A stretch of 64,000 nt of DNA from Alphaproteobacteria bacterium (GCA_035509415.1 DATJLQ010000001.1:101-64100), one strand, 5' to 3'; counted from the stretch's first letter, positions 29,296 through 49,490 are shown. The notes: generated by a model from the sequence alone, not told the origin. Numbers and translations: made by a program.

Positions 29296-31212
29296 TCAGA
29301 GCGTCCGGGCGAGCACCTCGAACGAGGAGGCGGCGCGGGCATTGGCTTGGGCGGCCAAACGCACCGGCGTGTTGGCGGCGCCGAACAGGTCGTAGTTGCG
29401 CCGCTCGACGATCTCGAAGAAGAAGCGGTCCTCGAAGGTCGCGGTGTAGGCGTGGAAGAACTCGCCGCCGGCCTGGCCGCGGTCGTAGAGCACGTTGAGC
29501 TCGCGCATGCGCTCGAGCGCGGGTGCTGGAATGTCGAAGCGCGCGCCGAGGTCTTCGTAGTAGTTCTTCGGGATGTCGAGGAAGGAGACGCCGCGGTCGC
29601 GCGCGCGCTCGACGAAATCGAGCAGGTTCGCGGTTTCGAGCGCGATCTGCTGGATGCCGGCGCCGCCGAATGCGCCCATGAAGCTCACGGCCGCGGTCGA
29701 TCCGCCCTCGGCGACGTTGAGCGGGATGCGGATCTGGCCGTCGCGCGAGCGCACGACGCGGCTCGAGAGGGCGCCGTAGGGATCGGCGAGCTCGATCTGG
29801 GGCTCGCTCACGAAGCCGAACATGGCCTTGTAGAACAAGAGCCAGGTGAGGAATTCGCCGCGCCGCACGACGTTGGAGAAATGGTCGATGCGCGTGAGCG
29901 GACCCGGCACCGTGGGCCCCAGGGGCACGAAATCGCGCTCCCAGATCGACGGGCCCGAGCGCGCGCCGGGCGCGGGCACGAAATAGATCAGGCTGTTCTC
30001 GATTCCCGCGATCGCCGGGATCAGCGTCTCGCCCTGGCCGATGCGCCCGTAATAGGTGCTCGAGCCGAGCGCGTTGGCGCGCTCGAGCGCGCGCTCCGGC
30101 TCGTCGAAGCGCAGCGCCATGGCGCACACCGAGGTCCCGTGCACCAAAAAGAAGGAATGGGCGAAGCTGTCGGTCTCGCGGTTGACCACGATGTTAACGT
30201 CGTTCTGGCGGTAGAGATCGATGTCCTTGCTGCGATGATGGCCCGCGCGCGCGAAGCCGAGCCCCTCGAGAAGCTTGGCGAGCCGCCCGGCCTCCTTGCC
30301 GCCCGAGGCGAACTCGACGAACTCGATGCCGCGGACCTGGGCGGGTGGCGGCATCGGCGCCCCCGACGGCGTCGCCGGCACCGTCACGGACGGATGCGCG
30401 CGCCGCAGCGCCTCGCCGCACAGCTCGAGCGAGCGCATGCCGTCGAGGGCGATGCCCGAGACCGAGGCGCCGCGGAACTGGTCGTTGAAGATCACGAGCG
30501 AAACCGGCCCGCTGTAGCCCGTGCGCACGACCGCCTCGAGGAACGGCTCGATCGGCCAGTCGCCCTGGCCGGGAAAGCAGCGGTGATGCCGGCTCAAGGA
30601 CATCGGGTCCATCACCAGCGCCGGCGCGTCCGCGATTTGGACCAGCGCGATGCGGTCGCCCGGCAACGACGAGATCGTCTCGATCGGGCCGTTGCGCACC
30701 AAAGTGTGGAAGCTGTCGAGCACGAGGCCGAGATTGGGCCGGTCGGCGAGACGCACGATGTCCCACGCCTGGGTCCATTCGCGCACGTGGGTGCCCCAGG
30801 CGAGCGCCTGGTAGCCGATGCGCAGCCCGCGCGCCTGGGCGCGGTCGGCGAGCAGCGCCAGGTCCGCGGCGGCGCGCTCCACCCCGTCGAGCGCCTCGGG
30901 TGCGACGTTCGAGCACACGCAGAGAAGCCGCGTGCCGAGCTCGTCCATCAGGTCGAGCTTGCGGCTCGCGCGCTCGAGGTTGCGCGCGCGTTGCGGCTCG
31001 GGCATGGCCTCGAAGTCGCGCAGCGGCTGGAGGGCCACGATCTCGAGCCCGAGGCCCTCGGCCATGCGGCGCACGTCGCGCGGCGAGCCGTTGAAGAAGG
31101 TCAGGTCGTTCTCGAACAGCTCGACGGCGCGGAAGCCGGCCTTGGCGACCGCCATCAGCTTGGCCTCGAGGGTCCCGCCCAGGGACGCCGTCGAGATCGA
31201 CCATTTGAGCAT
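29296..31212 (-). CDS. quiC: 3-dehydroshikimate dehydratase, fused QuiC1 type (sugar-phosphate isomerase/TIM-barrel N-domain + HPPD/VOC-like C-domain)
   Basis: 638 aa. The N-terminal 280 aa are xylose-isomerase-like TIM barrel (AsbF-like). The C-terminal 350 aa are 4-hydroxyphenylpyruvate-dioxygenase-like. Same architecture as Pseudomonas QuiC1. Confidence 0.8.
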   Translation of the reverse strand: MLKWSISTASLGGTLEAKLMAVAKAGFRAVELFENDLTFFNGSPRDVRRMAEGLGLEIVALQPLRDFEAMPEPQRARNLERASRKLDLMDELGTRLLCVCSNVAPEALDGVERAAADLALLADRAQARGLRIGYQALAWGTHVREWTQAWDIVRLADRPNLGLVLDSFHTLVRNGPIETISSLPGDRIALVQIADAPALVMDPMSLSRHHRCFPGQGDWPIEPFLEAVVRTGYSGPVSLVIFNDQFRGASVSGIALDGMRSLELCGEALRRAHPSVTVPATPSGAPMPPPAQVRGIEFVEFASGGKEAGRLAKLLEGLGFARAGHHRSKDIDLYRQNDVNIVVNRETDSFAHSFFLVHGTSVCAMALRFDEPERALERANALGSSTYYGRIGQGETLIPAIAGIENSLIYFVPAPGARSGPSIWERDFVPLGPTVPGPLTRIDHFSNVVRRGEFLTWLLFYKAMFGFVSEPQIELADPYGALSSRVVRSRDGQIRIPLNVAEGGSTAAVSFMGAFGGAGIQQIALETANLLDFVERARDRGVSFLDIPKNYYEDLGARFDIPAPALERMRELNVLYDRGQAGGEFFHAYTATFEDRFFFEIVERRNYDLFGAANTPVRLAAQANARAASSFEVLARTL

Positions 31213-31219
31213 TGCAGTA

Positions 31220-31298
31220 ATCTCCTATATTTCGGAGATAATCATATAACTACGCAATTTGAAAATAAAGCGGATTTGACGTAGGGTCGCCGGGCGAC
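31220..31298. promoter_or_regulatory. quiC/gntR divergent control region with palindromes and AT-rich box
   Basis: ATCTCC-N8-GGAGAT (31220-31239). AT-rich AATCATATAACT (-10-like for both directions). GTCGCCgGGCGAC palindrome (31286-31298). Confidence 0.35.
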
Positions 31299-31321: not shown

Positions 31322-32071
31322 ATGAGCGACGGAGCGGAACGGGCTGCCGGTTCGGCGACGCTGACGGAGGCGCTCCAGGAGCGTATCCGCCAGGATATCA
31401 TCTTGGGCGCGCTCGAGCCAGGCGCCAAGCTCCGGCTCGAGCGTCTGCGCAAGATTTACGGCGCGAGCGTCAACACGCTGCGCGAGACGCTCTCGCGCCT
31501 CGCCTCGGAGGGGCTGGTCGTGGCCGAGGGCCAACGCGGCTTCGCGGTGCTGCCGGTCTCGCTCGAGGATTTGCGCGACATCACCTACATGCGCCAGCTT
31601 CTCGAGTGCCATGCGCTCCGGGTCTCGATCGAGCATGCCGACCTCGACTGGGAGGCGCGCGTGGTGGGCGCCTACCACAAGCTTTCCAAGATCGACAACC
31701 TGGTCGAGGATCGCCCCGACGAATTCGGCGACGCGTGGGAGAAGTACAATCAGGAATTCCACGAGGCGCTGATCTCGAATTGCGGCTCGCGTTGGCTCGC
31801 GTTGTTCCACCGGGCCATGTACGACCACAGCCGGCGCTACCGCATGCTCTCGCTCAAGACCAAGCCGTTCCCGCGCTCGCAATCGGCCGAGGAGCACAAG
31901 GCTATTCTCGAGGCCGCGATCGCGCGCGACGCGGACCGGGCTTGCGCGATCCTCCAGGCTCACATCCTCAAGGGTGCCGATCTCGATCAGCCCGGCGAAG
32001 TGGCGGCCAAGGCGCAAAAGCGCGGCGCCGCGCGCCGGCGCCAGGGCAACGCGAGTGCCAAGCAGAAATAG
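31322..32071 (+). CDS. GntR-family (FadR/FCD subfamily) transcriptional regulator
   Basis: 249 aa with N-terminal wHTH (LRLERLRKIYGASVNTLRETLSRLASEGLV) and C-terminal FCD domain. Divergent from quiC. Confidence 0.9.
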   Translation: MSDGAERAAGSATLTEALQERIRQDIILGALEPGAKLRLERLRKIYGASVNTLRETLSRLASEGLVVAEGQRGFAVLPVSLEDLRDITYMRQLLECHALRVSIEHADLDWEARVVGAYHKLSKIDNLVEDRPDEFGDAWEKYNQEFHEALISNCGSRWLALFHRAMYDHSRRYRMLSLKTKPFPRSQSAEEHKAILEAAIARDADRACAILQAHILKGADLDQPGEVAAKAQKRGAARRRQGNASAKQK

Positions 32072-32098: not shown

Positions 32099-33859
32099 TC
32101 ACACGGTCGCGACGTGGGAAATGCCCTTTCCCGGCGAATAGATGTCCAGAATGTTCCAGTGGCCGGCGGTCGGCGTCGGGTTGTTGACCATCGCGACGTC
32201 GATCACCGAAGGCCGGCCCGAAGCGATCGCCTCCGCGAGCGCGGGCTTGAACTCGGACGCCTTGCGGATGCGGATGCCGTGGACGCCGTAGCCGCGCGCG
32301 ATCGCGGCATAGTCGGGCATGAAGGGCCCGCCCGTCTCCGGGAAGGTCGTGCCGTAGGTCAGGCCGAAATGCGCCTTCTGCAGGCCCGCGATCGTGCCGA
32401 AGGCGTTGTTGTTCATGACCACCCAGATCACCGCGAGATTTTCCTCGGCCGCGGTCGCGAGCGTCGCGGGGTTCTGGCCGAAGCCGCCGTCGCCGACGAG
32501 CGAGACCACCACCCGGTCCGGCCGCGCGATCTTGGCGCCGAGCGCCGCGGGCGGGCCGAATCCCATGGTCGCGTAGCCGCCGGGGGTCAAGATGCTGCCG
32601 GGCGTATAGATGGGGAATTGCTGGCCGACGCCGTTCTTGTTCCAGCCCACGTCGGTCGTGACGATGGCGTCGCGCGGCAGCACCTCGCGCACTTCGGCGA
32701 GGATGCGCTCGGGCATCATCGGGAACGCCTCGCTCCGCACCATCTCGAGATTGGCCCGACGCTGCTCGGCGCGATAGGCCGCGATCTCGCGCTCGAGCGC
32801 CTCGTTGCGGCGCGCGCGCGGCACGAGCTCGCGCGCGATCCGGTTGAGCGTCTTGAGCGCCTGCTTCAAGTCCGCGACCGCGCCGATCGCGGTCGGGAAA
32901 TTGCGCCCGATCTCGCTCGGCTCGATGTCGATGTGGATGAGCTTCGAGGGCGGGAAGCTGAAGGTGTATTTGGGCTCCCAGGAGCTGCTGTCGGCCTCCT
33001 TGAAGCGCGTGCCGAGGCCGAGCATCCAATCGGCGCCGAGGCACTTCGCGTTGATGAACTTGGTACCCCAGAAGCCGGTCATGCCGAGGACGAGCGGATG
33101 GTCGTCGGGCAAGGCGCCCTTGCCCATGAGGCTGTGGGCGACCGGGATCGCGAGATGGTCGACCAAGGCGCGTAGCTCCTCCGCCGCCTGGGCCAGCACG
33201 ACGCCGCCGCCGACATAGATCACCGGCCGCTTCGCCGCGGCGAGCGTGCGCACGATCTCGGCCGCGACCGCGGCGTCGATGTCCGGCTTCGCGATCGACT
33301 TCGCGTTGAGGGCCAGCCGGTCGAAGCGCTCGACGTCCACCTCGCGCGAGAAAATGTCCATCGGCACGTCGACCAGGACCGGTCCCGGCTGACCCGATTC
33401 CGCGAGCTGGAACGCCTTCTCGATGATCTCGGGGAACAGCTCCGGGCTCTCGACGCGCCAGGCGCGCTTCACGAACGGGCGATAGATCTCGAACTGGGTC
33501 GCGTCGCCGTGGAGGTTGACCTCCTGGTGCGGATGCTTGCCGTAGTAATGGCTCGGGATGTCGCCCGCGATCACCACCATGGGAATGCAGTCGAGGGCCG
33601 CGTTGGCGACCCCGGTCGCGGCGTTGGTCAGGCCCGGGCCGAGATGGGTCAGGAGCACCGAGGCCTTCCCGGTCACGCGCGCGTAGCCGTCGGCGGCGTG
33701 CGCCGCGATCTGCTCGTGCCGCACGGTGACGAACTGGATCTTGCTGTTCGCCATCGCCGAGAGCACCGCGATGTTGGTGTGGCCGCACAGCCCGAAGACG
33801 TGGGTGATGCCGCGGCCTTCGAGGTAGCGGACCAGCTGATGGGAGACGAGATCGCGCAT
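32099..33859 (-). CDS. Thiamine-diphosphate-dependent enzyme (acetolactate-synthase-like; sulfoacetaldehyde acetyltransferase / oxo-acid lyase-type candidate)
   Basis: 586 aa from internal Met (MRDLVSHQL...) of the 1101-aa fused ORF. TPP motif GDGGFGQN-X22-NNNAFG and a central FAD/ADP-like domain. Confidence 0.85.
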   Translation of the reverse strand: MRDLVSHQLVRYLEGRGITHVFGLCGHTNIAVLSAMANSKIQFVTVRHEQIAAHAADGYARVTGKASVLLTHLGPGLTNAATGVANAALDCIPMVVIAGDIPSHYYGKHPHQEVNLHGDATQFEIYRPFVKRAWRVESPELFPEIIEKAFQLAESGQPGPVLVDVPMDIFSREVDVERFDRLALNAKSIAKPDIDAAVAAEIVRTLAAAKRPVIYVGGGVVLAQAAEELRALVDHLAIPVAHSLMGKGALPDDHPLVLGMTGFWGTKFINAKCLGADWMLGLGTRFKEADSSSWEPKYTFSFPPSKLIHIDIEPSEIGRNFPTAIGAVADLKQALKTLNRIARELVPRARRNEALEREIAAYRAEQRRANLEMVRSEAFPMMPERILAEVREVLPRDAIVTTDVGWNKNGVGQQFPIYTPGSILTPGGYATMGFGPPAALGAKIARPDRVVVSLVGDGGFGQNPATLATAAEENLAVIWVVMNNNAFGTIAGLQKAHFGLTYGTTFPETGGPFMPDYAAIARGYGVHGIRIRKASEFKPALAEAIASGRPSVIDVAMVNNPTPTAGHWNILDIYSPGKGISHVATV

Positions 33860-33900: not shown

Positions 33901-35307
33901 CTAAAGAGCGTCGGTGCCGAAGAACTCGCCGAACAGCTCCTGCTCCGTCGGCCGGTCCTCGGCGATCGGTCGGCTGACCCAGGTGACGTTCATGTAGTGG
34001 CGCAGGTTGATGTTCTCGTTGGTGATGTTGCCGCCCCAGATGCCGCAGCCGAGGCTCGAGGTCATCGGCATGCCGTTGTTGAAGGCGCCCGCGTTCGCCT
34101 TCGACTGGGGTTGGCGCACCATGATGCGGCTGACCGGGGCCACGCGCGCGAGCCGGTCGACATGGTCGTCGTCGAACGAGTAGATGCCGCACGAGTGGCC
34201 CTTGCCGCCGACCTCGTAGATATCGTGCACCATCTGGAGCGCTTCGTCGAAGGTCCGGTACTTGAAGACCGCGAGCACGACGCACAGCTTCTCGCTCGAG
34301 AACCGGTGCTGCTTGCCGATCGCGTCCTGGCGTACGAACAGGAACACGCGGTCGGCCGGAATCGCGAAGCCGGCGCGCTCGGCGATGCGTTGCGCGGAGA
34401 TCGCGATGGTGTCGGGCCGGCGATGGCCCTCCTCGTCCCACAGCGCCTTCTCGAGCAGCGCCTTTTCGCGCTCGTCGCAGAGGTAGCCGCCCTCCTTCTG
34501 GAGCTGCGCGATCATCGCGTCGTAGAGCTTGGCGTCGACCAGCATGTTGCCGTCCGCCGAGCAGCCCGAGCCGAAATCGGAGGTCTTGCTGATGCGCGTG
34601 TTGCGCGCCGCATCCGCCACGTCCGCGGTCTCGTCGACCAGGACGGTCGAGTTCCCGGCCCCGACCCCGAAGGCGGGCCGGCCCGAGCTGTAGGCGGCCT
34701 CGACCATGGGCCGTCCGCCGGTCGCCATGGTAAGGTCGCAGGTCGACATCAGCTCGGCCGTGAGCGGGATGCTGGGCTTCCACACGCATTGGAACAGGTC
34801 CTCGGGGGCGCCCAGGCTCTTGAGCGTCTTGCGCATCACCTCGACCATCTCGTAGGTCGTCTGCCGGCTGCGCGGGTGCGGCGAGAAGATCACCGCGTCC
34901 TTGCATTTGAGCGCGTAGATCGCGGTCACCGGCGGCGTGAGCTCGGGATTGGTGGTCGGCACCAGCGAGACGATCACGCCCGCGGGCTTCGCGTACTTGA
35001 CCAGCCCTTTGGCTTCGTCGACCTCGATCACGCCCATGCTTTTCTGGCGCAACGCGTCGCGCAGCACGCCCTGGATCTTGAAGCGCTTGGCGCCGCGGCC
35101 GGCGCGGTCGCCGATGCCGCTCTCGTCGACGCCCATCTGGGCGATGCGCAGGAAGGTCTTCTCGTTGCCGGTCGCCCAGCCGATCGCCCGGCACAGCCGG
35201 TCGATCCGGGCCTGATCGTAATCCGCGACCGCGGCCATTGCCGCGCGCGCCTTGGCGAGAAGCTCGTGCGCGAGCACCCGCTCCTCGGGCGTGATGTCCC
35301 TGGCCAT
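33901..35307 (-). CDS. Aldehyde dehydrogenase, CoA-acylating type (EutE/PduP/SauS/SucD-like)
   Basis: 468 aa, ALDH superfamily, of the short (~470 aa) acylating subclass. Catalytic Cys in SDFGSGCSADGN. Confidence 0.75.
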   Translation of the reverse strand: MARDITPEERVLAHELLAKARAAMAAVADYDQARIDRLCRAIGWATGNEKTFLRIAQMGVDESGIGDRAGRGAKRFKIQGVLRDALRQKSMGVIEVDEAKGLVKYAKPAGVIVSLVPTTNPELTPPVTAIYALKCKDAVIFSPHPRSRQTTYEMVEVMRKTLKSLGAPEDLFQCVWKPSIPLTAELMSTCDLTMATGGRPMVEAAYSSGRPAFGVGAGNSTVLVDETADVADAARNTRISKTSDFGSGCSADGNMLVDAKLYDAMIAQLQKEGGYLCDEREKALLEKALWDEEGHRRPDTIAISAQRIAERAGFAIPADRVFLFVRQDAIGKQHRFSSEKLCVVLAVFKYRTFDEALQMVHDIYEVGGKGHSCGIYSFDDDHVDRLARVAPVSRIMVRQPQSKANAGAFNNGMPMTSSLGCGIWGGNITNENINLRHYMNVTWVSRPIAEDRPTEQELFGEFFGTDAL

Positions 35308-35355: not shown

Positions 35356-35739
35356 CTAGCGGGTCGGCAGGAATCCGGGCGGCGCGTAGCACCACAGCAG
35401 CCACAACGGCTCGTTGCCGTCGTTGTAGTGGACGTGCGCGTTGCCGGCGGGGATGAAGATCCAGTCGTTCTGCTTGAAGCGCATCTCGGTGCCGGCGGTG
35501 CGGTCGTAGGCGATGCCGCCGCCGCGGATCGCGACGTTGATTTCCTCGGAGCCCGGGTGATTGTGCTCGGCGCAGCGCTCGCCGGGCTCGAACACGGTCA
35601 GGCCGGCAACCATCTGCGAAGCGCCCACGCGGTCCTTGTCGATGAGCCTGAAGACCTTGCGCCGCAACCCCTCCTCGCCGAGGCCGAGCCAGATTTCCTT
35701 GGCGTCCTTGAAGGGGTCGAGGATTTGAATCTTGTTCAT
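35356..35739 (-). CDS. Cupin-domain protein (cupin_2), small
   Basis: 127 aa with metal-binding His motif HNHPGSEE...H. First gene of the cupin-ALDH-TPP operon. Confidence 0.8.
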   Translation of the reverse strand: MNKIQILDPFKDAKEIWLGLGEEGLRRKVFRLIDKDRVGASQMVAGLTVFEPGERCAEHNHPGSEEINVAIRGGGIAYDRTAGTEMRFKQNDWIFIPAGNAHVHYNDGNEPLWLLWCYAPPGFLPTR

Positions 35740-35837
35740 CGAGGTTCCTCCCTGACGCGCGCGGCGCCTCTTCTCGGGTTCCGATCGCCGCGCGGCCGCA
35801 TTACCGCCGATCGGCCCGCGCGCCGCAATCGATGGAG

Positions 35838-35889
35838 CGTAAACATCCTATGTTTCGCGTTTACGCCAAAAATGTACCATTTTGTACAT
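35838..35889. promoter_or_regulatory. Operator-like palindromes upstream of the cupin operon
   Basis: Nested palindromes CGTAAAC-N14-GTTTACG and AAACAT-cct-ATGTTT (35838-35865). ATGTAC-N6-GTACAT with A/T flanks (35872-35889). An AT-rich ATCATATAT box follows at about 35911. Confidence 0.45.
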
Positions 35890-36019
35890 CTCGGCGCCGA
35901 ACCGTGTCAATGGCAGGAACATCATATATTTTTCGAAATATGGAAAAGCATTCGGAATCCGTCGCGTACGCGACGCGGCGCGTCGGCGCCCGGGCCAAGC
36001 CGGCCCGGAGTCGCAACCG

Positions 36020-37210
36020 CTAGCGGCCCGCGCCGAGCACGCCGATCCGCACCAGCTCGTCGATCTCGCTGCGCTCGAGACCGAGCTCCTCGGCAACCGC
36101 CTTGCTGTGCTCACCCGCGCGCGGCACGTCGAGACGCCGGCCCAAGCGCGCGCCGCCGAGCTCGAGCGGCAACGCCGGAAGCCGCGTGGATCCGCCGTCG
36201 GGCAGGCTCACCTCGATCATGGCCCCTTGCGTGTCGAGCTGCGGGTCGTCGAACAATTCGTCCGGCCGCGCGATGGGCGCGAACGGCAGCCCGACGCGCT
36301 CGCATTTCCGCGCGATCTCGGCGCGGCTCATGGTCTTGAACAGCGTGCGCAAGTGCGGGATCAGCCGCTCGCGCGCGGCGACGCGTCGATTGTTCGTGGC
36401 GAGCGCCGCGTCGGCCGCGAGGTCGGCCGCGTCGAACTCGCCGCAGAAGGCGCGCCACTGGGTGTCGGTGACGACGCCGACGAAAATCTGCAGCGCGTCC
36501 GCGGTATCGAACACGTCGTAGACGCCCCAGGCGGAGATGCGCGCGGGCATCGGCTGGGCCGGCTGGCCGGTCACGGCATATTGCGCCATCGAGGTCGAGA
36601 CCAGGAACGCGACGTTCTCGAACAACGCGCTCCTGACGCATTGGCCGCGCCCGGTCCGGTCGCGCTCGCGCAACGCCGCGAGCACGCCGATCGCGGCGAA
36701 CAGGCCGCCCATCATGTCGTTGACCGGCGCACCGGCGCGTAGCGGCCGGCCCGGCGGCCCGGTCATGTAGGCGAGGCCGCCCATCATCTGCACCACCTCG
36801 TCGAGGGCGGCGCGATGCTCGTAGGGGCCGGAGAGGAATCCCTTGAGCGAGCAATAGACGAGGCGCGGGTTGAGCGGCTCGAGGGTCTCATAGCCCAGGC
36901 CCATCGCGTCCATCGCCCCGGGCCGGAAATTCTCGATCAGCACGTCGGCGCGCGCGATCAGCCGGCGCGCGAGATCGAGCCCGCGCGGCGCTTTCATGTC
37001 GAGCGCCAAGCTGCGCTTGTTGCGGTTGAAGCTGATGAAGAATCCGGCACCCGAGCCCGGGAGATTCCGCGTGTTGTCGCCGCCCTTGGCGGGCTCGACC
37101 TTGACCACGTCGGCACCCAGGTCCGCGAGGACCAGGCCGCAGCTCGGGCCCATCACCATATGGGAGAATTCCACCACGCGCACGCCGTCGAGGGGAAGGC
37201 GCGTCGTCAT
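36020..37210 (-). CDS. CaiB/BaiF-family (class III) CoA-transferase
   Basis: 396 aa from internal Met (MTTRLPLDGVRVVEFSHMVMGP...) with the class III CoA-transferase signature. Confidence 0.9.
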   Translation of the reverse strand: MTTRLPLDGVRVVEFSHMVMGPSCGLVLADLGADVVKVEPAKGGDNTRNLPGSGAGFFISFNRNKRSLALDMKAPRGLDLARRLIARADVLIENFRPGAMDAMGLGYETLEPLNPRLVYCSLKGFLSGPYEHRAALDEVVQMMGGLAYMTGPPGRPLRAGAPVNDMMGGLFAAIGVLAALRERDRTGRGQCVRSALFENVAFLVSTSMAQYAVTGQPAQPMPARISAWGVYDVFDTADALQIFVGVVTDTQWRAFCGEFDAADLAADAALATNNRRVAARERLIPHLRTLFKTMSRAEIARKCERVGLPFAPIARPDELFDDPQLDTQGAMIEVSLPDGGSTRLPALPLELGGARLGRRLDVPRAGEHSKAVAEELGLERSEIDELVRIGVLGAGR

Positions 37211-37253
37211 GCGGGTCGCTTCGTCATGCCGGGCGCGTTCCCATGCCGGCGCG

Positions 37254-38201
37254 TTACGCCGGGTGCGGAGTCGTATGGGCGAATCCCTTCGGCAGGCCCG
37301 CGTCGGAGACGAAGCCGTAGATCGGCTCGTCCGGCAGCGACGCGGCGAGCAGCCTGCGCGCGGCGAACAGCGCGTCGAAGTCGATGCCGGTCCTGAGCCC
37401 CATGGATTCGAGGAGGAAGACGAGATCCTCGGTGACGATGTTGCCGCTCGCCCCCGGCGCATAGGGGCAGCCGCCGATCCCGCCTTGGGACGAATCGAAG
37501 GTCCGCACGCCGACCTCGAGCGCCGCCACGACGTTGGCGAGCCCTTGGCCGCGCGTGTTGTGGAGATGGGCACCCCCGGTCCGCTCGCCGATCGCGGCGC
37601 GCACCGCGGTGAACAGGCGCCGCACCTGGACCGGGTTGGCATAGCCCACCGTGTCCGCGAGATTGACCGAATCGACGCCCGCCTCGGCCATGGCGAGTGC
37701 GAGGCGCACGGTGTCGCTTTCCGGCACCACGCCCTGGATGGTGCAGCCGAACGCGGTCGAGAGCCCGGTTTCGACCTTGACGCTCGGGTAGCGCTCGTTG
37801 CGCAAGGCGACGATCGCCTTCACCTCGGCCAGCATCTGCTCGTGGGTCATGCGCACGTTGCGCATGAGATGCGCGGCACTCACCGAGACCGGGATCGTGA
37901 TCATGTGCGCGCCGGCCTCGAGCGCGAGGCGCGCATATTTGAGGTTCGGCACCAGGACCGCGACGCGCAGGCGCGGGATGGTCAGCGCATGGGCCACGAC
38001 CGCGCCGATATCGGCCATCTGCGGCAAGATCTTGGGCGAGACGAACGAGCCGACTTCGATTTCGCGGAGGCCGGCCGCCGCGAGCGCCGAGATCCAGCGA
38101 TTCTTGTCCTCGGTCCGCATGGCGTGCTTGGCGCTTTGCAGGCCGTCGCGCGGGCCGACCTCGCTCACCAGGACGTCGATGTCGCTGTCGCTGCCGGTCA
38201 T
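37254..38201 (-). CDS. HMG-CoA-lyase-like (DRE-TIM metallolyase) family protein
   Basis: 316 aa from internal Met (MTGSDSDIDVLVSEVGPRDGLQS...). DRE-TIM motifs PRDGLQ and GGCPYAPGASGN. Confidence 0.85.
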   Translation of the reverse strand: MTGSDSDIDVLVSEVGPRDGLQSAKHAMRTEDKNRWISALAAAGLREIEVGSFVSPKILPQMADIGAVVAHALTIPRLRVAVLVPNLKYARLALEAGAHMITIPVSVSAAHLMRNVRMTHEQMLAEVKAIVALRNERYPSVKVETGLSTAFGCTIQGVVPESDTVRLALAMAEAGVDSVNLADTVGYANPVQVRRLFTAVRAAIGERTGGAHLHNTRGQGLANVVAALEVGVRTFDSSQGGIGGCPYAPGASGNIVTEDLVFLLESMGLRTGIDFDALFAARRLLAASLPDEPIYGFVSDAGLPKGFAHTTPHPA

Positions 38202-38351
38202 GGCCGATCTCCTCGCGCTCGCGCCGGCCGCGCGCGGCCGACGCCGCCTTGCCATGTCGCGCCGAAATCGCGCGCGGCGCCGCGTGCGGAGCCGTGATTG
38301 ATAATCTCGGGTCGGTTGACTGTCAACTCGCGGCCAAGTGCGCGCGGCTCC

Positions 38352-38807
38352 TCAGGCCGATGGCGCGCGCGCGGCGATGAGGCGCGCGATCGCGTCGACG
38401 GCGAGGACGTAGCCCTGCGGCCCGAAGCCCGCGAGCACGGCGGTCGCCGCCTGCGACACCAGCGAATGACGACGGAACGCGTCGCGCCGGTGGATGTTGG
38501 TGACGTGGATCTCGACGATCGGCCCGCCGAACGCGAGCAGCGCGTCGAGCACCGCGACCGAGGTCGTCGTCCAGCCCGCCGGGTTGATGACGATGCCGGC
38601 CGCGCGCTTCGACGCCTCCTGGATCCAGTCGACCAGCTTGCCCTCGCTGTTGGTCTGGCGGAACACGGCCGTGAGGCCGTGCTCCGCCGCGCGCCGCGCG
38701 CACTGCGCCGCCACCTCGGGCAGCGTGGTCGAGCCGTAGAGATGGGGCTCGCGCGTCCCGAGCAGGTTGAGGTTCGATCCGTTCAGGATATAGAGGCGCT
38801 TCGGCAT
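38352..38807 (-). CDS. aroQ: Type II 3-dehydroquinate dehydratase
   Basis: 151 aa MPKRLYILNGSNLNLLGTREP...NPAGWTTTS...IEIHVTNIHRRDAFR, the canonical type II DHQase. Confidence 0.9.
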   Translation of the reverse strand: MPKRLYILNGSNLNLLGTREPHLYGSTTLPEVAAQCARRAAEHGLTAVFRQTNSEGKLVDWIQEASKRAAGIVINPAGWTTTSVAVLDALLAFGGPIVEIHVTNIHRRDAFRRHSLVSQAATAVLAGFGPQGYVLAVDAIARLIAARAPSA

Positions 38808-39072
38808 GTTCGCTCTCCCTCGGATTCGGGCGCCCGGCGCCGGCACGCTCGGCGCTCGCGGCCGCCGGCCATCCCTAGGCCCGACGGCCCCGCTTGTCAA
38901 TTCGAGGCGGCCGGTTCGCCGGTGCCGCGACCGCTCGAAGCTTGGCGTGCCATGATTTGCATTTCGCGCCCGCACAGAGCATCCTGTGCCTCGGTCCATG
39001 GCGCTTCCCGCCTGCGTCGCGCGCGCCTCGGCGCCCCGCGACCGCCCGGGCCGCCCGCCGGAGATTTCCCCC

Positions 39073-39729
39073 ATGAGCCGCACGCACGCCGAGAAACACA
39101 AGCCGCGCCGGCGGCGCGTCAACGATCCCGAGGGGACCAAGCGCAACATCATCGAGGTCGCGACGCGCGAGTTCGCCGACAAGGGCTATGGCGGCGCCCG
39201 CGTCGACCAGATCGCGGCGCGCACCCGGACCAGCAAGCGCATGATCTATTACTATTTCGGCGGCAAGGAGGGCCTCTACATCGCCGTGCTCGAGGAGGCC
39301 TACCGCAGCATCCGCAGCATCGAATCGACCCTCGATCTCGGCCGGCGCGGACCCGAGGAGGCGCTCCGCAAGCTGGTCGCCTTCACCTTCGACTACCAGA
39401 ATGCGCACCCCAAGTTCGTGCGCCTGGTGATGAACGAGAACATCCTCAACGGCGCCCACGTCGCGCGCTCGACCGCGATCCAGCGCCTCAACACCGTCGT
39501 CATCGACACGTTGCGCGAGCTGCTCGCCCGGGGCCGGGCCGAGGGCGTGTTCCGGCGCGACATCGACCCGGTCGAGCTTCATATGTCGATCAGCGCGCTG
39601 TGCATCTTCAACGTCGCGAACCGCGCCACCTTCTCGACCATCTTCAAGCGCGACATGACGTCCGCCGCGGCCCTGGCCGCGCGCCGCACCCAGGTCGTCG
39701 ACCTGATCATCCGGTACGTGATGCGCTGA
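39073..39729 (+). CDS. TetR/AcrR-family transcriptional regulator
   Basis: 218 aa with N-terminal HTH (TKRNIIEVATREFADKGYGGARVDQIAARTRTSKRMIYYYFGGKEGLY). Located between aroQ and the TRAP operon. Confidence 0.9.
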   Translation: MSRTHAEKHKPRRRRVNDPEGTKRNIIEVATREFADKGYGGARVDQIAARTRTSKRMIYYYFGGKEGLYIAVLEEAYRSIRSIESTLDLGRRGPEEALRKLVAFTFDYQNAHPKFVRLVMNENILNGAHVARSTAIQRLNTVVIDTLRELLARGRAEGVFRRDIDPVELHMSISALCIFNVANRATFSTIFKRDMTSAAALAARRTQVVDLIIRYVMR

Positions 39730-39779
39730 GCGGCGCGGACCGCGGTCTCCCTCCGGGGCGGCGCCGCTGTTTTGGCTCG

Positions 39780-39809
39780 TTGACAAAATGAACCAACTGG
39801 TACATTTTG
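39780..39809 (+). promoter_or_regulatory. Promoter (-35 TTGACA) overlapping a 26-bp palindromic operator upstream of the TRAP operon
   Basis: TTGACA, then CAAAATGAACCAACTGGTACATTTTG (22/26 self-complementary; core ATGAAC-N6-GTACAT). Lies 80 nt upstream of the dctP ATG. Confidence 0.55.
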
Positions 39810-39891: not shown

Positions 39892-40878
39892 ATGAAGTCG
39901 ATCAAACGTCGCACCGTTTTGGCCGCCGGCGCCTCGATCGTCGCGCTCGGCATGGCGGGCGTGCCGCGCGCGCGCGCCAAGACCAAGCTTCGCTTCTCCG
40001 GCGCGTTCACCGAGCAGGACCCTCGGGCCGACGCCTACAAGGCGCTCGCGCAGGCGGTCAAGGACGAGTTCGAGATCGAGCTTTACTTCAACAACACGCT
40101 CTTCAAGCAGGGCACCGAGCTCGTCGCCATGGAGCGCGGCAATCTCGAGATGTGCAACCTCGCCCCGCAGGACATCGCGAAGCAGGTGCCGGCCTGGACG
40201 CTCATGACCTCGGCCTATCTCTTCCGCGGCATCGACCACCTCGAGAAGACGTACAAGAGCGCTCCCGGCAAGGAGATGATCAAGCTCGCCAAGGACAAGC
40301 TCGGCGTCCAGGTCATCACGCCGGTCTATTTCGGCACGCGCCAGGTGAACCTGAAGCCCGACCGCAAGATCGAGACGCCGAAGGACATGGCGGGGATCAA
40401 GCTGCGCATGCCGCCGGGCGAGGTGTGGCAATTCCTCGGCGAGGCGATCGGCGCCAACCCGACGCCGGTTGCGTTCTCCGAGGTCTACACCGCGCTCCAG
40501 ACCGGCGCCATCGACGGCCAGGACAATCCGCTGGTGCTGAGCAAGCTGATGAAGTTCTACGAGGTCACCACCCAGTTCGTGCTCACCAGCCACCTGGTCG
40601 GCCACGACGTGATGGCGATGGATTCCAAGGTCTGGAACGCCATGACGCCGGCGCAGCAGGCGCGCTTCCAGTCGGCGGCGGAGAAGTCGATCAAGATCTC
40701 CACCTCGGCGTTCAACGGCCAGGAGCAGGACGCGGCGGCCTTCTTCAAGGCGCAAGGCCTGAAGCTCTACAAGCCCGACGTGGCCGCGTTCCGCACCTAC
40801 GCCCAGAAGAAGTACCTCGACAAGTACGGCGCGGATTGGCCCAAGGGCATGCTCGAGCGCATCAACGCGATCGCCTGA
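39892..40878 (+). CDS. TRAP transporter substrate-binding protein (DctP family)
   Basis: 328 aa with signal peptide and DctP-family fold motifs. Confidence 0.9.
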   Translation: MKSIKRRTVLAAGASIVALGMAGVPRARAKTKLRFSGAFTEQDPRADAYKALAQAVKDEFEIELYFNNTLFKQGTELVAMERGNLEMCNLAPQDIAKQVPAWTLMTSAYLFRGIDHLEKTYKSAPGKEMIKLAKDKLGVQVITPVYFGTRQVNLKPDRKIETPKDMAGIKLRMPPGEVWQFLGEAIGANPTPVAFSEVYTALQTGAIDGQDNPLVLSKLMKFYEVTTQFVLTSHLVGHDVMAMDSKVWNAMTPAQQARFQSAAEKSIKISTSAFNGQEQDAAAFFKAQGLKLYKPDVAAFRTYAQKKYLDKYGADWPKGMLERINAIA

Positions 40879-40998
40879 GCCGCACCCGCCGATTGCGGCA
40901 CGCAAGCGAATCCAGGCGGCCGTCCGCGGACGGTCGCCTGGACGCACGAACGGGATAGCGGCGCGCCGCCTTCGGCGCGCTGCGAGGGGATCCTGCCG

Positions 40999-41517
40999 AT
41001 GAGAGGGGAATCCGCCTTGACGCACTGGGGCCGGTGGCTGCGGCGGCGCGCGGAGAACGTCGCGGTGGCCCTCCTCGCGACCATGTTCGTCGCCTTCATC
41101 GTCCAGATCGTCTTCCGCTACGTGTTCGATTACCCGGTCGGCTGGACCGTCGAGGTCAGCACCGTCACGTGGCTCTGGACCGTGCTGTGGGGGGCCGCGT
41201 TCGTGCTCTCCGAGCGCGACGAGATCCGCTTCGACATCGTCTACGGCAGCGTGCCCGAGCGCTGGCGGCGCCGCTTCACGATCGTCACCGGGATCGCGCT
41301 CGTGGCACTCTACGGCGCGTCGCTGCCGGCCGCCTACCGCTACGTCGCCTTCATGAAGATCGAGACCTCGACCTATCTCCACATTCCGATCGATTACCTC
41401 TACTCGATCTACATCATCTTCGCCGTCGCCTGCATTTGCCGCTACGGCTGGCTGGTCTGGCGCGCGCTCCATAGGGCGAAGTCGCCGGTCACCGACCCCG
41501 CCAGGCTGGCGGACTGA
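40999..41517 (+). CDS. TRAP transporter small permease (DctQ family)
   Basis: 172 aa, 4 TM. Confidence 0.8.
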   Translation: MRGESALTHWGRWLRRRAENVAVALLATMFVAFIVQIVFRYVFDYPVGWTVEVSTVTWLWTVLWGAAFVLSERDEIRFDIVYGSVPERWRRRFTIVTGIALVALYGASLPAAYRYVAFMKIETSTYLHIPIDYLYSIYIIFAVACICRYGWLVWRALHRAKSPVTDPARLAD

Positions 41518-41519
41518 CC

Positions 41520-42818
41520 ATGACGATCACGCCCTTCGAGGTCTGCGTCGGCACCATCGTCGGCCTGGGCATCCTCGGCCTCCCGATCGGCCATTCGATG
41601 ATCGCCGCCTCGATCCTCTACCTGTTCCTCGCCCATCTCGATCCGGGCACCGCGGCCGAGCAGATCCTGAACGGCATCAACGACAGCTACGTGCTGATCG
41701 CGGTGCCGTTGTTCATCGTCGCGGCCGACATCATGAACGCCGGCAGCCTGACCGACCGGCTGCTCAATTTCTGCCTCGCCCTGGTCGGCCGGTTCCGCGG
41801 CGGCCTCGGCCACGTGAACGTCGTGGCCAACGTGATTTTCGCCGGCATGTCGGGCTCGGCGATCGCGGACGCGGTCGGCATCGGCCGCATCATCATCGGC
41901 ATGATGACCAAGGAGAACCGCTACCCCGCCGCGTATGCGGGCGCCATTACCGCCGCCTCCGCCGTGATCGGGCCGATCATCCCGCCCTCGATCCCGATGG
42001 TGGTTTACGCGCTCATCTCGGACGCCTCGATCGGCTACCTCTTCCTCGGCGGCGTGGTGCCCGGCCTGCTCTTGGGCGTCGCCTACATGGTGACCAACGC
42101 CGTCATCTCCCGCCGCCGGCGCTATCCCGTCGAGGCGCCGGTGCCGCTGCGCGAATTCCCCAAGATCACGATGCGCGCGTTCCCCGCGCTGATGCTGCCG
42201 GTGATCCTGCTGTTCGGCATCTATGGCGGGGTCACGACGCCGACCGAGGGTGCCGCGCTCGCCGCCGCCTACGCGCTCTTCGCCTCGACCGTGATCTACC
42301 GCGCGGTCACTTGGAAGCAGCTCTACGCCGCGTTCCTCACGAGCTTCAAGTCGGCCTCCTCGGTCGGCATCCTGATCGCCGGCGCCCTCGCCTTCAATTA
42401 CGTCGTAACGATCGAGAACGTGCCGACCGGGCTCCAGCATTTCATGAGCGGCTTCCATCTCTCGGCCTGGGGCTTCCTGCTGCTGGTGAACATCCTGCTC
42501 CTGATTCTCGGCTGCCTGCTCGAGGGCACCACCATCCTGCTCGTCATCGTTCCGATCTTCATTCCGACCGCGAAGTCGCTCGGCATCGATCTCGTCTATT
42601 TCGGCGTCGTGGTCGTGGTCAACATCATGATCGGCCTGGTGACGCCGCCCTACGGCCTGCTGCTGTTCGTCATCGCCAACATGACCAAAGAGCCGCTGGC
42701 CAAGATCGTGCGCGAGGCAGCACCCTTCATCGTCGCGGCGGTCGTGGTCCTGATCCTGATCACGGCCGTACCCGACCTGGTGCTCTGGCTGCCGCGCGAA
42801 ATCGGCTACAAGGGATAG
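41520..42818 (+). CDS. TRAP transporter large permease (DctM family)
   Basis: 432 aa, 12+ TM, DctM motifs. Confidence 0.92.
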   Translation: MTITPFEVCVGTIVGLGILGLPIGHSMIAASILYLFLAHLDPGTAAEQILNGINDSYVLIAVPLFIVAADIMNAGSLTDRLLNFCLALVGRFRGGLGHVNVVANVIFAGMSGSAIADAVGIGRIIIGMMTKENRYPAAYAGAITAASAVIGPIIPPSIPMVVYALISDASIGYLFLGGVVPGLLLGVAYMVTNAVISRRRRYPVEAPVPLREFPKITMRAFPALMLPVILLFGIYGGVTTPTEGAALAAAYALFASTVIYRAVTWKQLYAAFLTSFKSASSVGILIAGALAFNYVVTIENVPTGLQHFMSGFHLSAWGFLLLVNILLLILGCLLEGTTILLVIVPIFIPTAKSLGIDLVYFGVVVVVNIMIGLVTPPYGLLLFVIANMTKEPLAKIVREAAPFIVAAVVVLILITAVPDLVLWLPREIGYKG

Positions 42819-42822
42819 CGCC

Positions 42823-43755
42823 GTGAACGGACCCTTCCCCGCGCAGCACGGCACGCCGTCCGGCAGGACAGCCGCGACGGGGAGCGCGCTCGTGGGCCTC
42901 ATCGGCGCCAATATCAAGAGCTCGCTCTCGCCAGCGCTCCACGAGGATGCGTTCGCGGCGGCGGGCCTGCGCGGCCATTACCATCTCATGGATCTCGATC
43001 TTCTCCCCGGCCGCACGCTCGCCGAGCTGCTCGCTTCCGTGCGCGCCGCGGGCTTCGCCGGCGTCAACGTCACCTATCCCTGCAAGGAGGCGGTGCTACC
43101 GCTGCTCGACGCGGTGTCGGCGGAGGCGCGCGACATCGGCGCCGTCAACACGGTCACGATCGCGCCCGACCGCTCGACCGTGGGCTACAACACCGACCGG
43201 ATCGGATTTCGGCGCGCCTTCGAGGAGACGTTCGGGCGCGGCCCGGTCGAGGGGGCGACGGCGCTTCTCATCGGCGCGGGCGGCGCCGGCCGCGCGGTCG
43301 CGTTCTCGCTCTTCGATCTCGGCGTCGCGACCCTCCTGGTCCACGACCTCGCTCGGACGCGCGCGGTCGCCCTTGCCGACGAGCTCGCGCAGCGCTTCGG
43401 CCCGGGCCGCGCGCGCGCGGCGAGCGATGCCGCCGCCGCTCTCGCCGAGGCCGCTGGCGTGGTGAACGCGACGCCGGTGGGCATGCTCGGCATCCCCGGC
43501 AACCCCGTGCCCATGGCGGCGCTCGAGCCGCGCCACTGGGTCGCGGACGTGATCTACACGCCGCTCGAGACCCAGCTCGTCACGGGTGCCCGCGCGATCG
43601 GCGCCCGCGCCATGGGCGGGTCCGCGATGTGCGTGCACCAGGCGGCGGAATCGTTCCGCCTCTTCACCGGCCTCGTCCCCGACATCGCGCGTATGCGCCG
43701 CACCTTCGCCGACGCCGCCGCCGCGCGCGAAGCCACGCTCGCGCGCGCGGGCTGA
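42823..43755 (+). CDS. Shikimate/quinate 5-dehydrogenase family protein (AroE-like paralog)
   Basis: GTG start 4 nt after the dctM stop. Substrate-binding N-domain (SLSPALHE) and Rossmann GAGGAGRAV. Confidence 0.85.
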   Translation: MNGPFPAQHGTPSGRTAATGSALVGLIGANIKSSLSPALHEDAFAAAGLRGHYHLMDLDLLPGRTLAELLASVRAAGFAGVNVTYPCKEAVLPLLDAVSAEARDIGAVNTVTIAPDRSTVGYNTDRIGFRRAFEETFGRGPVEGATALLIGAGGAGRAVAFSLFDLGVATLLVHDLARTRAVALADELAQRFGPGRARAASDAAAALAEAAGVVNATPVGMLGIPGNPVPMAALEPRHWVADVIYTPLETQLVTGARAIGARAMGGSAMCVHQAAESFRLFTGLVPDIARMRRTFADAAAAREATLARAG

Positions 43756-44113
43756 GCGCGGCCCCGGCACGTTTTCAGCGTTTCCGCGTTATGGAGCGTC
43801 GGGCGGCCGCGCGACCGCGCACGGCGTTGCGCGCAGCCTTGCCCGCGCATCGTCCCGCCCGCGCGCGCCCCGGCTTGGGCGCCGCAAGGCCTGAAGCCCC
43901 GCTTTCCCAATGAAATAGGAGATTTTCTTGAATATCATATAATCGCGTTGATTTCTCCGCGCGTGCCACTTAGGCTCCGATGCCGAGCCCGGCGGAACGG
44001 GCGGGCGCTTCGGCGCCTTCCGCCCGCCGGGCCCGGATGCTACAAAAGCTGCCCGGGTCGCGGGCCACCGCCGGTTCCGGGCAACAACGACAACGAGACC
44101 CAAACGGGAGGAA

Positions 44114-45265
44114 ATGATCATGAAATCGTTCGTCGCGGGCGTCGCCATCGCGGGCGCCGCCCTCATCCTGTCGCCCATCGCCGCGCGCGCCGCGGATACG
44201 GTGCTCATCCCCTATGTGGGCGAGCTGTCCGGGCCCGGCGCCGTCTCCGGCACCAACTTCCGCGACGGCATCGTCCTGGCCGAAGAGGAGATCAACGCCA
44301 AGGGCGGCATTCTCGGCAAGAAGATCGACACGCCGATGTACGACACCCAGAGCGACGCGAGCGTCTCGCGCGCCCAGATCCAGAAGGTGCTCGACGAGCA
44401 TCCCTACGTGATCCTGGGCCCGGTCTATTCCGGCTCGGTCGTGGTCGACATGAAGCTGACCCAGGCGGCCGAAATCCCCGAGATCGTCGGCGGCGAGGCG
44501 GGCAACATCACGACCCAGGGCGACCCCTACGTGTTCCGCACCTCGTTCGGCCAGCAGTTCAGCATGCCGATCATCGCGAACTACATGGCCGACCAGCTCA
44601 AGATCAAGTCGGTCGCGGTGGTGTGGGTCAACAACGATTTCGGCAAGGGCGGGCGCGACGCCTTCGACAAGGAGATGGCCAAGCGCGGCATCAAGGTGGT
44701 CGTCGACGATTCGACCGAATCGGGCCAGACCGACTTCTCGGCCGACGTGGTCAAGGTCAAGGCGGCCAACCCGGACGCGGTGTTCGTCTATCTCAACGAG
44801 GAGGAAAGCGCGCGCTTCCTGCGTGAGGCCAAGAAGCAGGGCCTCCATAAGCCGCTCATCGGCGAGACCACGCTCCTGGGCCAGATCGTGATCAAGCTCG
44901 CCGGCGACGCCGCCAACGGCGTGCGCGGACATGTCGGCCTCACGATCGACGCGCCGATTCCGGCGGTCAAGGCGTTCGCCGAGCGCTTCCACAAGCGCTT
45001 CGGCTATTACTGCGATCATAACGGCATCAAGGGCTATACGGCCGTCTACATGATCAAGTACGTGACCGAGAAGATGGGCAAGTTCGATTCGAAGCTGTTT
45101 GCCACCACCCTCCATGGGCTCACCATCACGCCCAAGGAGGAGCCGAACATCCTGATGACGGCGACCTGGGACAAGAACGGCGACATCTACCGCGAGAGCT
45201 TCCTCGGCGAGGTCGTCGACGGCAAGCAGAAGATCGTGCAGATTCTGCCCGCGCTCAAGCCCTAG
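44114..45265 (+). CDS. ABC transporter substrate-binding protein, Liv (branched-chain amino acid / aromatic acid) family
   Basis: 383 aa with signal peptide and periplasmic binding protein type I fold. Confidence 0.9.
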   Translation: MIMKSFVAGVAIAGAALILSPIAARAADTVLIPYVGELSGPGAVSGTNFRDGIVLAEEEINAKGGILGKKIDTPMYDTQSDASVSRAQIQKVLDEHPYVILGPVYSGSVVVDMKLTQAAEIPEIVGGEAGNITTQGDPYVFRTSFGQQFSMPIIANYMADQLKIKSVAVVWVNNDFGKGGRDAFDKEMAKRGIKVVVDDSTESGQTDFSADVVKVKAANPDAVFVYLNEEESARFLREAKKQGLHKPLIGETTLLGQIVIKLAGDAANGVRGHVGLTIDAPIPAVKAFAERFHKRFGYYCDHNGIKGYTAVYMIKYVTEKMGKFDSKLFATTLHGLTITPKEEPNILMTATWDKNGDIYRESFLGEVVDGKQKIVQILPALKP

Positions 45266-45329
45266 GCACGGCCCGACCGCTCAAGGGCCCGGCGTCCTCG
45301 CAGGGGCGCCGGGCCGCCGAGGGATAATA

Positions 45330-49428: not shown

Positions 49429-49490
49429 ATAGGCGCTCGGCCGCTCGGCCGTCCCGCCTGTCCGCCGCCCCGCCCCAAGGAGACCCGTGC

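Follow-up and report, generated by a model that had tools for sequence, protein, structure and literature searches.

The window analysed here is a 64-kb stretch of DNA from an Alphaproteobacteria bacterium (GCA_035509415.1, DATJLQ010000001.1:101-64100; G+C content 67.5%), and our subject is a TetR-family regulator encoded in it together with two related palindromes located in two promoter regions. One palindrome (site 1) lies upstream of the dctPQM genes for a tripartite ATP-independent periplasmic (TRAP) transporter, which are followed in the same operon by a gene for shikimate/quinate dehydrogenase (SDH), and the other (site 2) lies upstream of an operon for a cupin, a CoA-acylating aldehyde dehydrogenase (ALDH) and a thiamine pyrophosphate (TPP) enzyme. 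A previous annotation made from the sequence alone, referred to as the sequence-only reading, had proposed that the two operons form a common TetR regulon. The elements concerned are as follows.

32099-33859, minus strand: TPP enzyme of 586 aa, acetolactate-synthase-like; start codon ATG at 33859, ribosome-binding site GAGGA
33901-35307, minus strand: CoA-acylating ALDH, SauS/SucD-like, 468 aa; 459.4 bits with the SauS model NF047625, cut-off 600
35356-35739, minus strand: Cupin_2 protein, 127 aa, the first gene after site 2
35868-35890, no strand: site 2, putative operator 2, AAAAATGTACCATTTTGTACATC; core ATGTAC-N6-GTACAT at 35872-35889, centre 141 nt upstream of the cupin ATG
35905-35910, minus strand: -35 box, a perfect TTGACA, in the promoter for cupin-ALDH-TPP (TTGACA-N18-TACAAA)
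39073-39729, plus strand: TetR-family regulator, 218 aa, with TetR_N and TetR_C_29 domains and recognition helix TSKRMIYYYF
39780-39785, plus strand: -35 box, a perfect TTGACA, in the promoter for dctPQM-SDH; it overlaps site 1 at its left edge
39784-39809, no strand: site 1, putative operator 1, CAAAATGAACCAACTGGTACATTTTG, a 26-bp palindrome CAAAATGAACCA-AC-TGGTACATTTTG between tetR and dctP
39892-42818, plus strand: TRAP genes dctP (39892-40878), dctQ (40999-41517) and dctM (41520-42818)
42823-43755, plus strand: SDH, the last gene of the TRAP operon; 317 bits with NF009201, cut-off 235

Two related palindromes in two promoter regions

Site 1 is an inverted repeat of 12+2+12 nucleotides, complementary at 11 of 12 positions, that begins 55 nt past the tetR stop codon. 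The sequence and its overlap with TTGACA were read at exactly the coordinates given by the sequence-only reading, which had also placed the second palindrome correctly except for its start, set at 35870 and thus 2 bases off. Direct comparison of the two sites returned the same identity as before, 17/21 across AAAATG...GTACAT. The inverted repeat ATGWAC-N6-GTACAT previously described is present in both sites, and their common form is better given as ATGWACCA-N2-TGGTWCAT, a palindrome of 18-22 bp. Both also have in common the half-site on the downstream side with its flank, TGGTACATTTT(T)GGCG, in the same orientation relative to transcription. A motif scan, which had been suggested earlier, was run on the 64-kb window with ATGWAC-N6-GTWCAT and at most one mismatch; it recovered sites 1 and 2 only, where 0.07 matches were expected, a count that is partly circular since the pattern was taken from these two sites themselves.

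TTGACA boxes were spotted by eye and then counted over the window, which contains 10 copies on both strands; 4 of the 10 are located in intergenic regions of the cluster, each facing the downstream gene. Operator 1, which begins 2 nt past its -35 box, extends over the spacer and the -10 region; operator 2, which begins 15 nt past its own -35 box, extends over the -10 and the start region. Both are classical positions for a repressor. A consensus promoter scan of both regions at a strict threshold reported no promoter. Full-length orthologues of 127 aa, together with a GGAGG ribosome-binding site, confirm the start of the cupin gene at 35739.

Two GC-rich hairpins follow the stop codon of the CoA-transferase gene that precedes the cupin operon, one a perfect 16-bp GC palindrome at 35960-35975 (CGTCGCGTACGCGACG) and the other of the form CCGGGCC-N5-GGCCCGG at 35990-36008. 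These may constitute a terminator without a T-run that parts the upstream unit of aroQ, an HMG-CoA-lyase-like (HMGL) gene and the CoA-transferase gene from the cupin operon. Because of the hairpins, the cupin operon is probably driven from a promoter of its own. A terminator scan gave no hit near site 2 and no strict terminator after the CoA-transferase gene.

The TetR regulator and its probable operator in other genomes

The TetR protein matches PF00440 (TetR_N, 52.6 bits) and PF17938 (TetR_C_29, 163.8 bits) as well as 48 TetR-family structures in the PDB, the best of which (3npi, 95 bits) is deposited merely as 'TetR family regulatory protein'. Its gene lies, as stated in the sequence-only reading, between both sites and directly upstream of the TRAP operon, and it is the sole TetR gene found in the window, which was not scanned exhaustively for others.

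A scan for relatives of this TetR, using one genome per species, confirmed at least 582, from which the best 80 loci (L001-L080) were taken. These come from Alpha- and Betaproteobacteria, encode orthologues with 52-79% identity to the TetR of the window and amount to 1.38 Mb together. TRAP genes were located within 10 kb of tetR in 59 of the 80 loci, SDH in 38, aroQ in 36, quiC in 17 and any of these in 68. Searching the loci with the consensus ATGTACCANNTGGTACAT, we found that the motif occupies two fixed places, namely 15-200 nt upstream of tetR and the short spacer after it, with occurrences within 300 nt upstream of the gene in 57 loci and within 450 nt downstream in 51.

A matrix of 22 nt was constructed from 93 orthologous sites (45 upstream and 48 downstream of tetR), with no window sequence inside. 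The consensus of these sites is A-Y-K-W-A-C-S-A-N2-Y-N-G-T-W-C-R-W, in which AC, A, GT and C are almost invariant. Using this matrix, a site of at least 18 bits was present beside tetR in 71 of the 80 orthologue loci. In total, 131 sites of at least 18 bits were detected in the 1.38 Mb, and all but about 12 flank tetR, TRAP, SDH, quiC or aroQ; most of the remaining ones lie upstream of TRAP genes that were missed by the labelling. This leaves about 3 unexplained sites per 1.38 Mb of related DNA, and hence an expectation of about 0.14 per 64 kb. When the spacers downstream of tetR in the window and in its four closest relatives were aligned (alignment A1; L001-L004), TTGACA and the operator were the sole conserved block, and TTGACA was invariant.

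Site 1 obtained a matrix score of 36.2 bits and is, on these grounds, very probably an operator of the TetR protein encoded at 39073-39729. The conserved regulon predicted from these loci is tetR, the TRAP transporter, SDH, aroQ and quiC, and because the motif adjoins these genes in orthologous loci, the regulator is expected to be a repressor of quinate/shikimate utilisation. The earlier guess of quinate and shikimate as the substrate class fits this regulon.

A different gene content was observed in Bradyrhizobium (L049, 5241-9868), where a TetR orthologue with 55% identity has the same operator upstream and is divergent from genes for an MFS transporter and two carboxylesterase/BD-FAE proteins. 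Similar arrangements, with TRAP-SDH replaced, were seen in L057, L062, L063 and L069. One may speculate that the carboxylesterase/BD-FAE genes of Bradyrhizobium code for esterases acting on quinate esters such as chlorogenate.

A paralogous regulator with another operator

Four loci with ALDH-TPP genes that are 82-84% identical to those of the window (L081, L084, L087 and L091) encode a paralogue with 46-48% identity to the TetR of the window, the likely regulator of those genes. Here, an operator of the form TAACTC-N6-GAGTTA is present twice per locus, after the paralogue's own gene and before ALDH, each time behind TTGACA. The system is thus like that of the window in the TetR_C_29 family and in the two-site layout, with one site after tetR and one before ALDH-TPP, each following TTGACA, but differs in having its own recognition helix (VNKRMIYYYF) and its own operator. 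The residues predicted to read the DNA track the operator type: loci of the ATGTAC type have (T/S)S-KRMIYYYF with GAR(V/I)D, and those of the TAACTC type have VN-KRMIYYYF with NAFVD. Neither the paralogue nor TAACTC-N6-GAGTTA was found in the window, which contains only chance-level matches with 3 mismatches. We infer that the dedicated paralogue was lost from the lineage of the window, the ALDH operon passing to the TRAP-linked TetR.

An alignment (A2) matches the HMGL-CoA-transferase promoter of the window (38290-38326, minus strand; TTGACA-N17-TATCAA) to those promoters of L081, L084 and L091 in which the operator of the paralogous TetR is present. The window promoter keeps the -35 and -10 boxes of the paralogue-type promoter, with the palindrome decayed to TCAACC...GAGATTA, possibly a relic of the lost regulator.

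Is site 2 a second operator?

Site 2 scored 24.5 bits when read on the minus strand (plus strand, 20.6 bits), whereas the next-best match in the window reached 6.1 bits and 30 shuffles of the window peaked at 15.2 bits. It fits all near-invariant positions of the 93 training sites. Together with the conservation of the operator in orthologous loci, the perfect TTGACA promoters and the clustering of ALDH-TPP genes with quinate genes, this score lends computational support to the common TetR regulon put forward by the sequence-only reading.

Several observations speak against such a role for site 2. The seed consensus of the matrix came from the two window sites, so that site 2 owes part of its high score to the way the matrix was made. 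At one central, variable position it carries a T, a base that none of the 93 training sites has there. No counterpart of site 2 was found in the other genomes examined: in the closest relative (L088), in which the cupin is 91% identical, the upstream spacer is wholly different and holds no site of 10 bits or more; sites of this strength are equally lacking in L081-L085, L087 and L089-L090, and none precedes the ALDH-TPP or cupin operons in the L081-L091 loci scanned; and in L009, which has a TPP orthologue, a site was found only upstream of SDH and none before the TPP operon. The regulon of the window is also incomplete as compared to other genomes, since no operator precedes aroQ, quiC or tetR (nothing above 6.1 bits). 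Finally, a second candidate motif on the cupin promoter might explain its regulation without TetR. The conservation of site 2 is to be read with the sample in mind, as the compared genomes never combine an orthologous TetR with an ALDH or cupin operon nearby (0 of the 80 loci L001-L080 have either within 10 kb of tetR). Site 2 looks lineage-specific, and weighing the evidence we consider it quite probable that it is a functional operator of the same TetR.

The second motif may be related to another regulator in the window.

31322-32071, plus strand: GntR/FCD regulator, CsiR-like
35921-35932, minus strand: candidate box for the GntR/FCD regulator, reading TATATGATGTTC on that strand and lying 10 nt ahead of the -35 of the cupin promoter

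Where 0.16 copies of the sequence ATCATATA would be expected, the window has three, every one of them in a promoter region: in the quiC/gntR spacer (31241-31248), 10 nt upstream of the cupin -35 box (35921-35928) and upstream of a Liv-type ABC transporter operon (43934-43941). On the opposite strand it reads TATATGATnnTC, which resembles the TATGAT(N2)TC boxes in gntR-linked spacers of L081, L084, L087 and L091, as well as the TTTATGATTTC box upstream of the cupin gene in L089, where gntR is divergent. We regard ATCATATA as a candidate operator of the GntR/FCD regulator, and the cupin operon is probably under both TetR and GntR/FCD control.

The best explanation, and one we hold to be probable, is that the TetR protein represses quinate/shikimate utilisation through ATGWACCA-N2-TGGTWCAT at both promoters. 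A TetR dimer, or possibly a pair of dimers, would bind the palindrome at the two promoters of the window. Occupation of operator 1 would block RNA polymerase at dctPQM-SDH and thereby uptake and the first oxidation step, and occupation of operator 2 would block it at the promoter for the cupin, the acylating ALDH and the TPP enzyme. An inducer from the pathway, for which quinate, shikimate, 3-dehydroshikimate and protocatechuate are candidates, would then free the repressor and turn both units on together. Binding, repression and effector are all inferred. Operator 2 would represent a lineage-specific recruitment, replacing the paralogous TetR or the LysR, GntR and AraC regulators of other genomes.

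The alternative that survives best, although we think it unlikely, is that only site 1 works, site 2 being a look-alike that arose by chance or is decaying, and cupin-ALDH-TPP being controlled by the GntR/FCD regulator (31322-32071) through the ATCATATA/TATATGAT box by the -35. It would account for the lack of site 2 at L088-L090 and at every other ALDH-TPP locus, for the cupin operon of L089 with its divergent gntR, its TTTATGATTTC box and no TetR site, for the excess of ATCATATA in promoter regions and for a score 12 bits under that of site 1. However, chance is an unlikely source of a 24.5-bit match that is the sole one besides site 1, that covers the -10 of a promoter with a perfect TTGACA and that is located 3.2 kb from tetR, given the expectation of about 0.14 per window and a much smaller one for a promoter so near to tetR. 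The shared half-site and flank in the same orientation likewise argue against a fortuitous match, and a GntR box is compatible with TetR control, dual control being common.

A different action of TetR at site 2, as a roadblock, an activator or a tuner of read-through from the aroQ-HMGL-CoA-transferase unit, appears improbable. The different offsets of the operators from their -35 boxes (2 nt versus 15 nt) and the lack of a strict terminator after the CoA-transferase gene, which makes read-through possible, are in its favour, but a site over the -10 and +1 is where a repressor classically binds, the stop codon of the CoA-transferase gene is followed by GC-rich hairpins, and activators are rare in the TetR family. 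It is very improbable that another protein, such as GntR/FCD or a global factor, binds the palindromes and that tetR is a mere neighbour: there is a second regulator in the window, and LysR, GntR and AraC proteins are found at this module in other genomes, but the motif accompanies tetR in 71 of the 80 orthologue loci across Alpha- and Betaproteobacteria, a GntR homologue is present in just 2 of the 80, the motif is absent where GntR occurs without an orthologous TetR (L081, L082, L084, L087, L089 and L090), and changes in the recognition helix accompany changes in the operator.

Other genes and features of the cluster

The remaining genes and boxes of the cluster are listed here.

29296-31212, minus strand: two-domain QuiC-like dehydroshikimate dehydratase; 684 bits with the QuiC model, equivalog cut-off 1200
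36020-37210, minus strand: family III CoA-transferase
37254-38255, minus strand: HMG-CoA-lyase-like gene
38321-38326, minus strand: TTGACA facing the HMGL gene
38352-38807, minus strand: aroQ, type II dehydroquinase; DHquinase_II 176 bits
38895-38900, minus strand: TTGACA facing aroQ

The window encodes the catabolic set for quinate and shikimate, with a transporter, SDH, a type II dehydroquinase and a QuiC-type dehydratase, the last being judged by its score a relative of QuiC rather than a certified equivalog. As a whole, the block constitutes a quinate/shikimate cluster. In describing it, the sequence-only reading had overlooked aroQ, the GntR/FCD gene and the second candidate motif. The nearest solved relatives of DctP are 4pf6 and the SiaP sialic-acid binders. 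The divergent spacer between aroQ and tetR (38808-39072, 265 bp) has a TTGACA toward aroQ and contains neither the TetR operator nor the ATCATATA box.

Downstream of SDH, the region 44114-50333 encodes a Liv-type ABC transporter, with a solute-binding protein (44114-45265), permeases (45330-47191) and an ATPase (47909-48679), and the operon ends in a second shikimate-dehydrogenase-like gene (49401-50333). This looks like a second uptake unit for hydroaromatic compounds, apparently under the ATCATATA box and not the TetR operator.

Beside site 2 there is another repeat.

35837-35866, no strand: nested palindrome GCGTAAAC-N14-GTTTACGC, in the predicted 5' untranslated region; function unsupported

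The arms are located at 35837-35844 (GCGTAAAC) and 35859-35866 (GTTTACGC), and enclose AAACAT (35841-35846) and ATGTTT (35850-35855). The nested palindrome is real as a sequence, as had been reported. A leader hairpin or riboswitch was considered and rejected: although the minimum-energy fold contains the hairpin, the 141-nt leader does not exceed shuffled sequences in stability (z = -0.74), and the palindrome is absent from L088-L090.

The cupin-ALDH-TPP module and its quinate neighbourhood

We examined 12 gene contexts of orthologues of the ALDH (73-85% identity) and the cupin (73-91%), on which the following counts rest. The ALDH-TPP pair is located within a quinate cluster in 11 of the 12, as defined by DHquinase_II, SDH, QuiC or a standalone HPPD-like protein along with a TRAP or TctABC transporter; one of the 11 (L088, a 2.6-kb contig) was counted solely for its window-like order of CoA-transferase, cupin and ALDH. 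The twelfth context has the order HMGL-cupin-ALDH-TPP with an AraC regulator. The usual partners of ALDH-TPP are an HMG-CoA-lyase-like gene, a family III CoA-transferase and either an AP_endonuc_2 protein or a cupin, and cupin orthologues with 73-91% identity head the cupin-ALDH operons in L088-L090. The regulators at the module vary, with LysR in L082, L083, L085 and L086, GntR/FCD in L089 and L090, and the TetR_C_29 paralogue in L081, L084, L087 and L091.

The lyase position is filled in L086 by a citrate-synthase-like protein of 275 aa (citryl-CoA-lyase type). The HPPD-like C-terminal domain of QuiC stands alone beside an SDH-like gene in L089 (6174-8206) and L090 (3064-4963), and is fused to a Shikimate_dh_N domain in L086 (6625-8523), which suggests an independent role of this domain in these clusters.

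Several known functions were tried for these enzymes and rejected. The ALDH is not assigned to SauS, given its score of 459.4 against the cut-off of 600 (NF047625) and neighbours that are quinate genes rather than sulfoacetate genes. For the TPP enzyme, biosynthetic acetolactate synthase (TIGR00118, 435 versus 538 bits) and Gcl (327 versus 791 bits) were discarded on their scores, and IolD was outside the 25 best-scoring families. Because the ALDH, the TPP enzyme and QuiC are all under their equivalog cut-offs, the enzymes are named at the family level only.

A literature search on the enzyme module found no description of it. Tentatively, the cupin, the CoA-acylating ALDH and the acetolactate-synthase-like TPP enzyme may form a branch, so far undescribed, in the catabolism of quinate/shikimate or related hydroaromatic compounds, acting with the HMGL protein, the family III CoA-transferase and, elsewhere, AP_endonuc_2 proteins. 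Different lineages might then wire the module to their own quinate regulator, here TetR and GntR/FCD on one two-signal promoter. A possible route would be ring-opening or a 2-oxo-acid step, in which the TPP enzyme would decarboxylate, the aldehyde would be oxidised to an acyl-CoA, and the lyase would then cleave a 3-hydroxy-3-carboxy/methyl-acyl-CoA.

Among the carbon sources that plants supply to soil and rhizosphere, quinate, shikimate and their esters, for example chlorogenate, are major ones. A TetR_C_29-type quinate regulator with a recognisable operator across many Alpha- and Betaproteobacteria allows regulons to be annotated by motif scans, and the repressor-operator pair could be used as a quinate/shikimate-responsive biosensor part if the ligand is identified. 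The chief gain is a link, both regulatory and syntenic, between quinate uptake and a module of enzymes that is uncharacterised. Site 2 adds a regulatory reason, beyond gene clustering, to probe this module of five to six enzymes in hydroaromatic catabolism.

Comparison with known systems

The module invites comparison with the sulfoacetaldehyde module of SauS and Xsc and with the inositol module of IolE, IolD, IolB and IolA. By analogy, a CoA-acylating ALDH and an acetolactate-synthase-like TPP enzyme are common to all of these, and the inositol module also resembles the present one in using an AP_endonuc_2 dehydratase and a cupin-like isomerase on a carbocyclic polyol. In contrast to these systems, the ALDH is under the SauS cut-off, the TPP enzyme is under every cut-off for acetolactate synthase, Gcl and Xsc, and the partners in the window are quinate genes, an HMGL gene and a family III CoA-transferase.

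Classical pairs of TetR-family repressors and operators include TetR-tetO, QacR-IR1 and the RutR box TTGACCAnnTGGTCAA. Like these, the present system has a helix-turn-helix at the N terminus, a C-terminal ligand domain and a palindrome of 18-26 bp over a promoter by the regulator gene, and in most orthologous loci the operator is also found upstream of tetR. It differs from them in its C-terminal domain, which is TetR_C_29, and in that the window and L001-L004 are without an autoregulatory site upstream of tetR. The motif of the window shares the ACCA-N2-TGGT core with the RutR box. RutR itself was tried as an identity for the TetR protein and rejected, the scores being far under the cut-offs (TIGR03613, 50.3 versus 368 bits; NF011584, 42.7 versus 230 bits). 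With its domains, a repeat that overlaps the promoter and the co-inheritance of regulator and operator, the system has those features of the family that were examined and is predicted to work like a textbook TetR repressor-operator pair.

A literature search found neither a TetR-type quinate regulator nor a quinate TRAP system; the preprints it brought up concern regulators of the LysR and IclR types, and apparent 'TetR' matches in one on LigR of P. putida proved to be the word 'tetramer'. Known regulators of quinate and shikimate utilisation include the LysR-type proteins QsuR of Corynebacterium glutamicum and QuiR of Listeria, and the IclR-type proteins PcaU and LigR2. These control the same kinds of genes, for a transporter, a quinate/shikimate dehydrogenase, a dehydroquinase and a dehydroshikimate dehydratase. 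Unlike the LysR and IclR proteins, the regulator of the window belongs to the TetR family, and it probably acts by repression that is relieved by a ligand rather than by activation of the LysR type.

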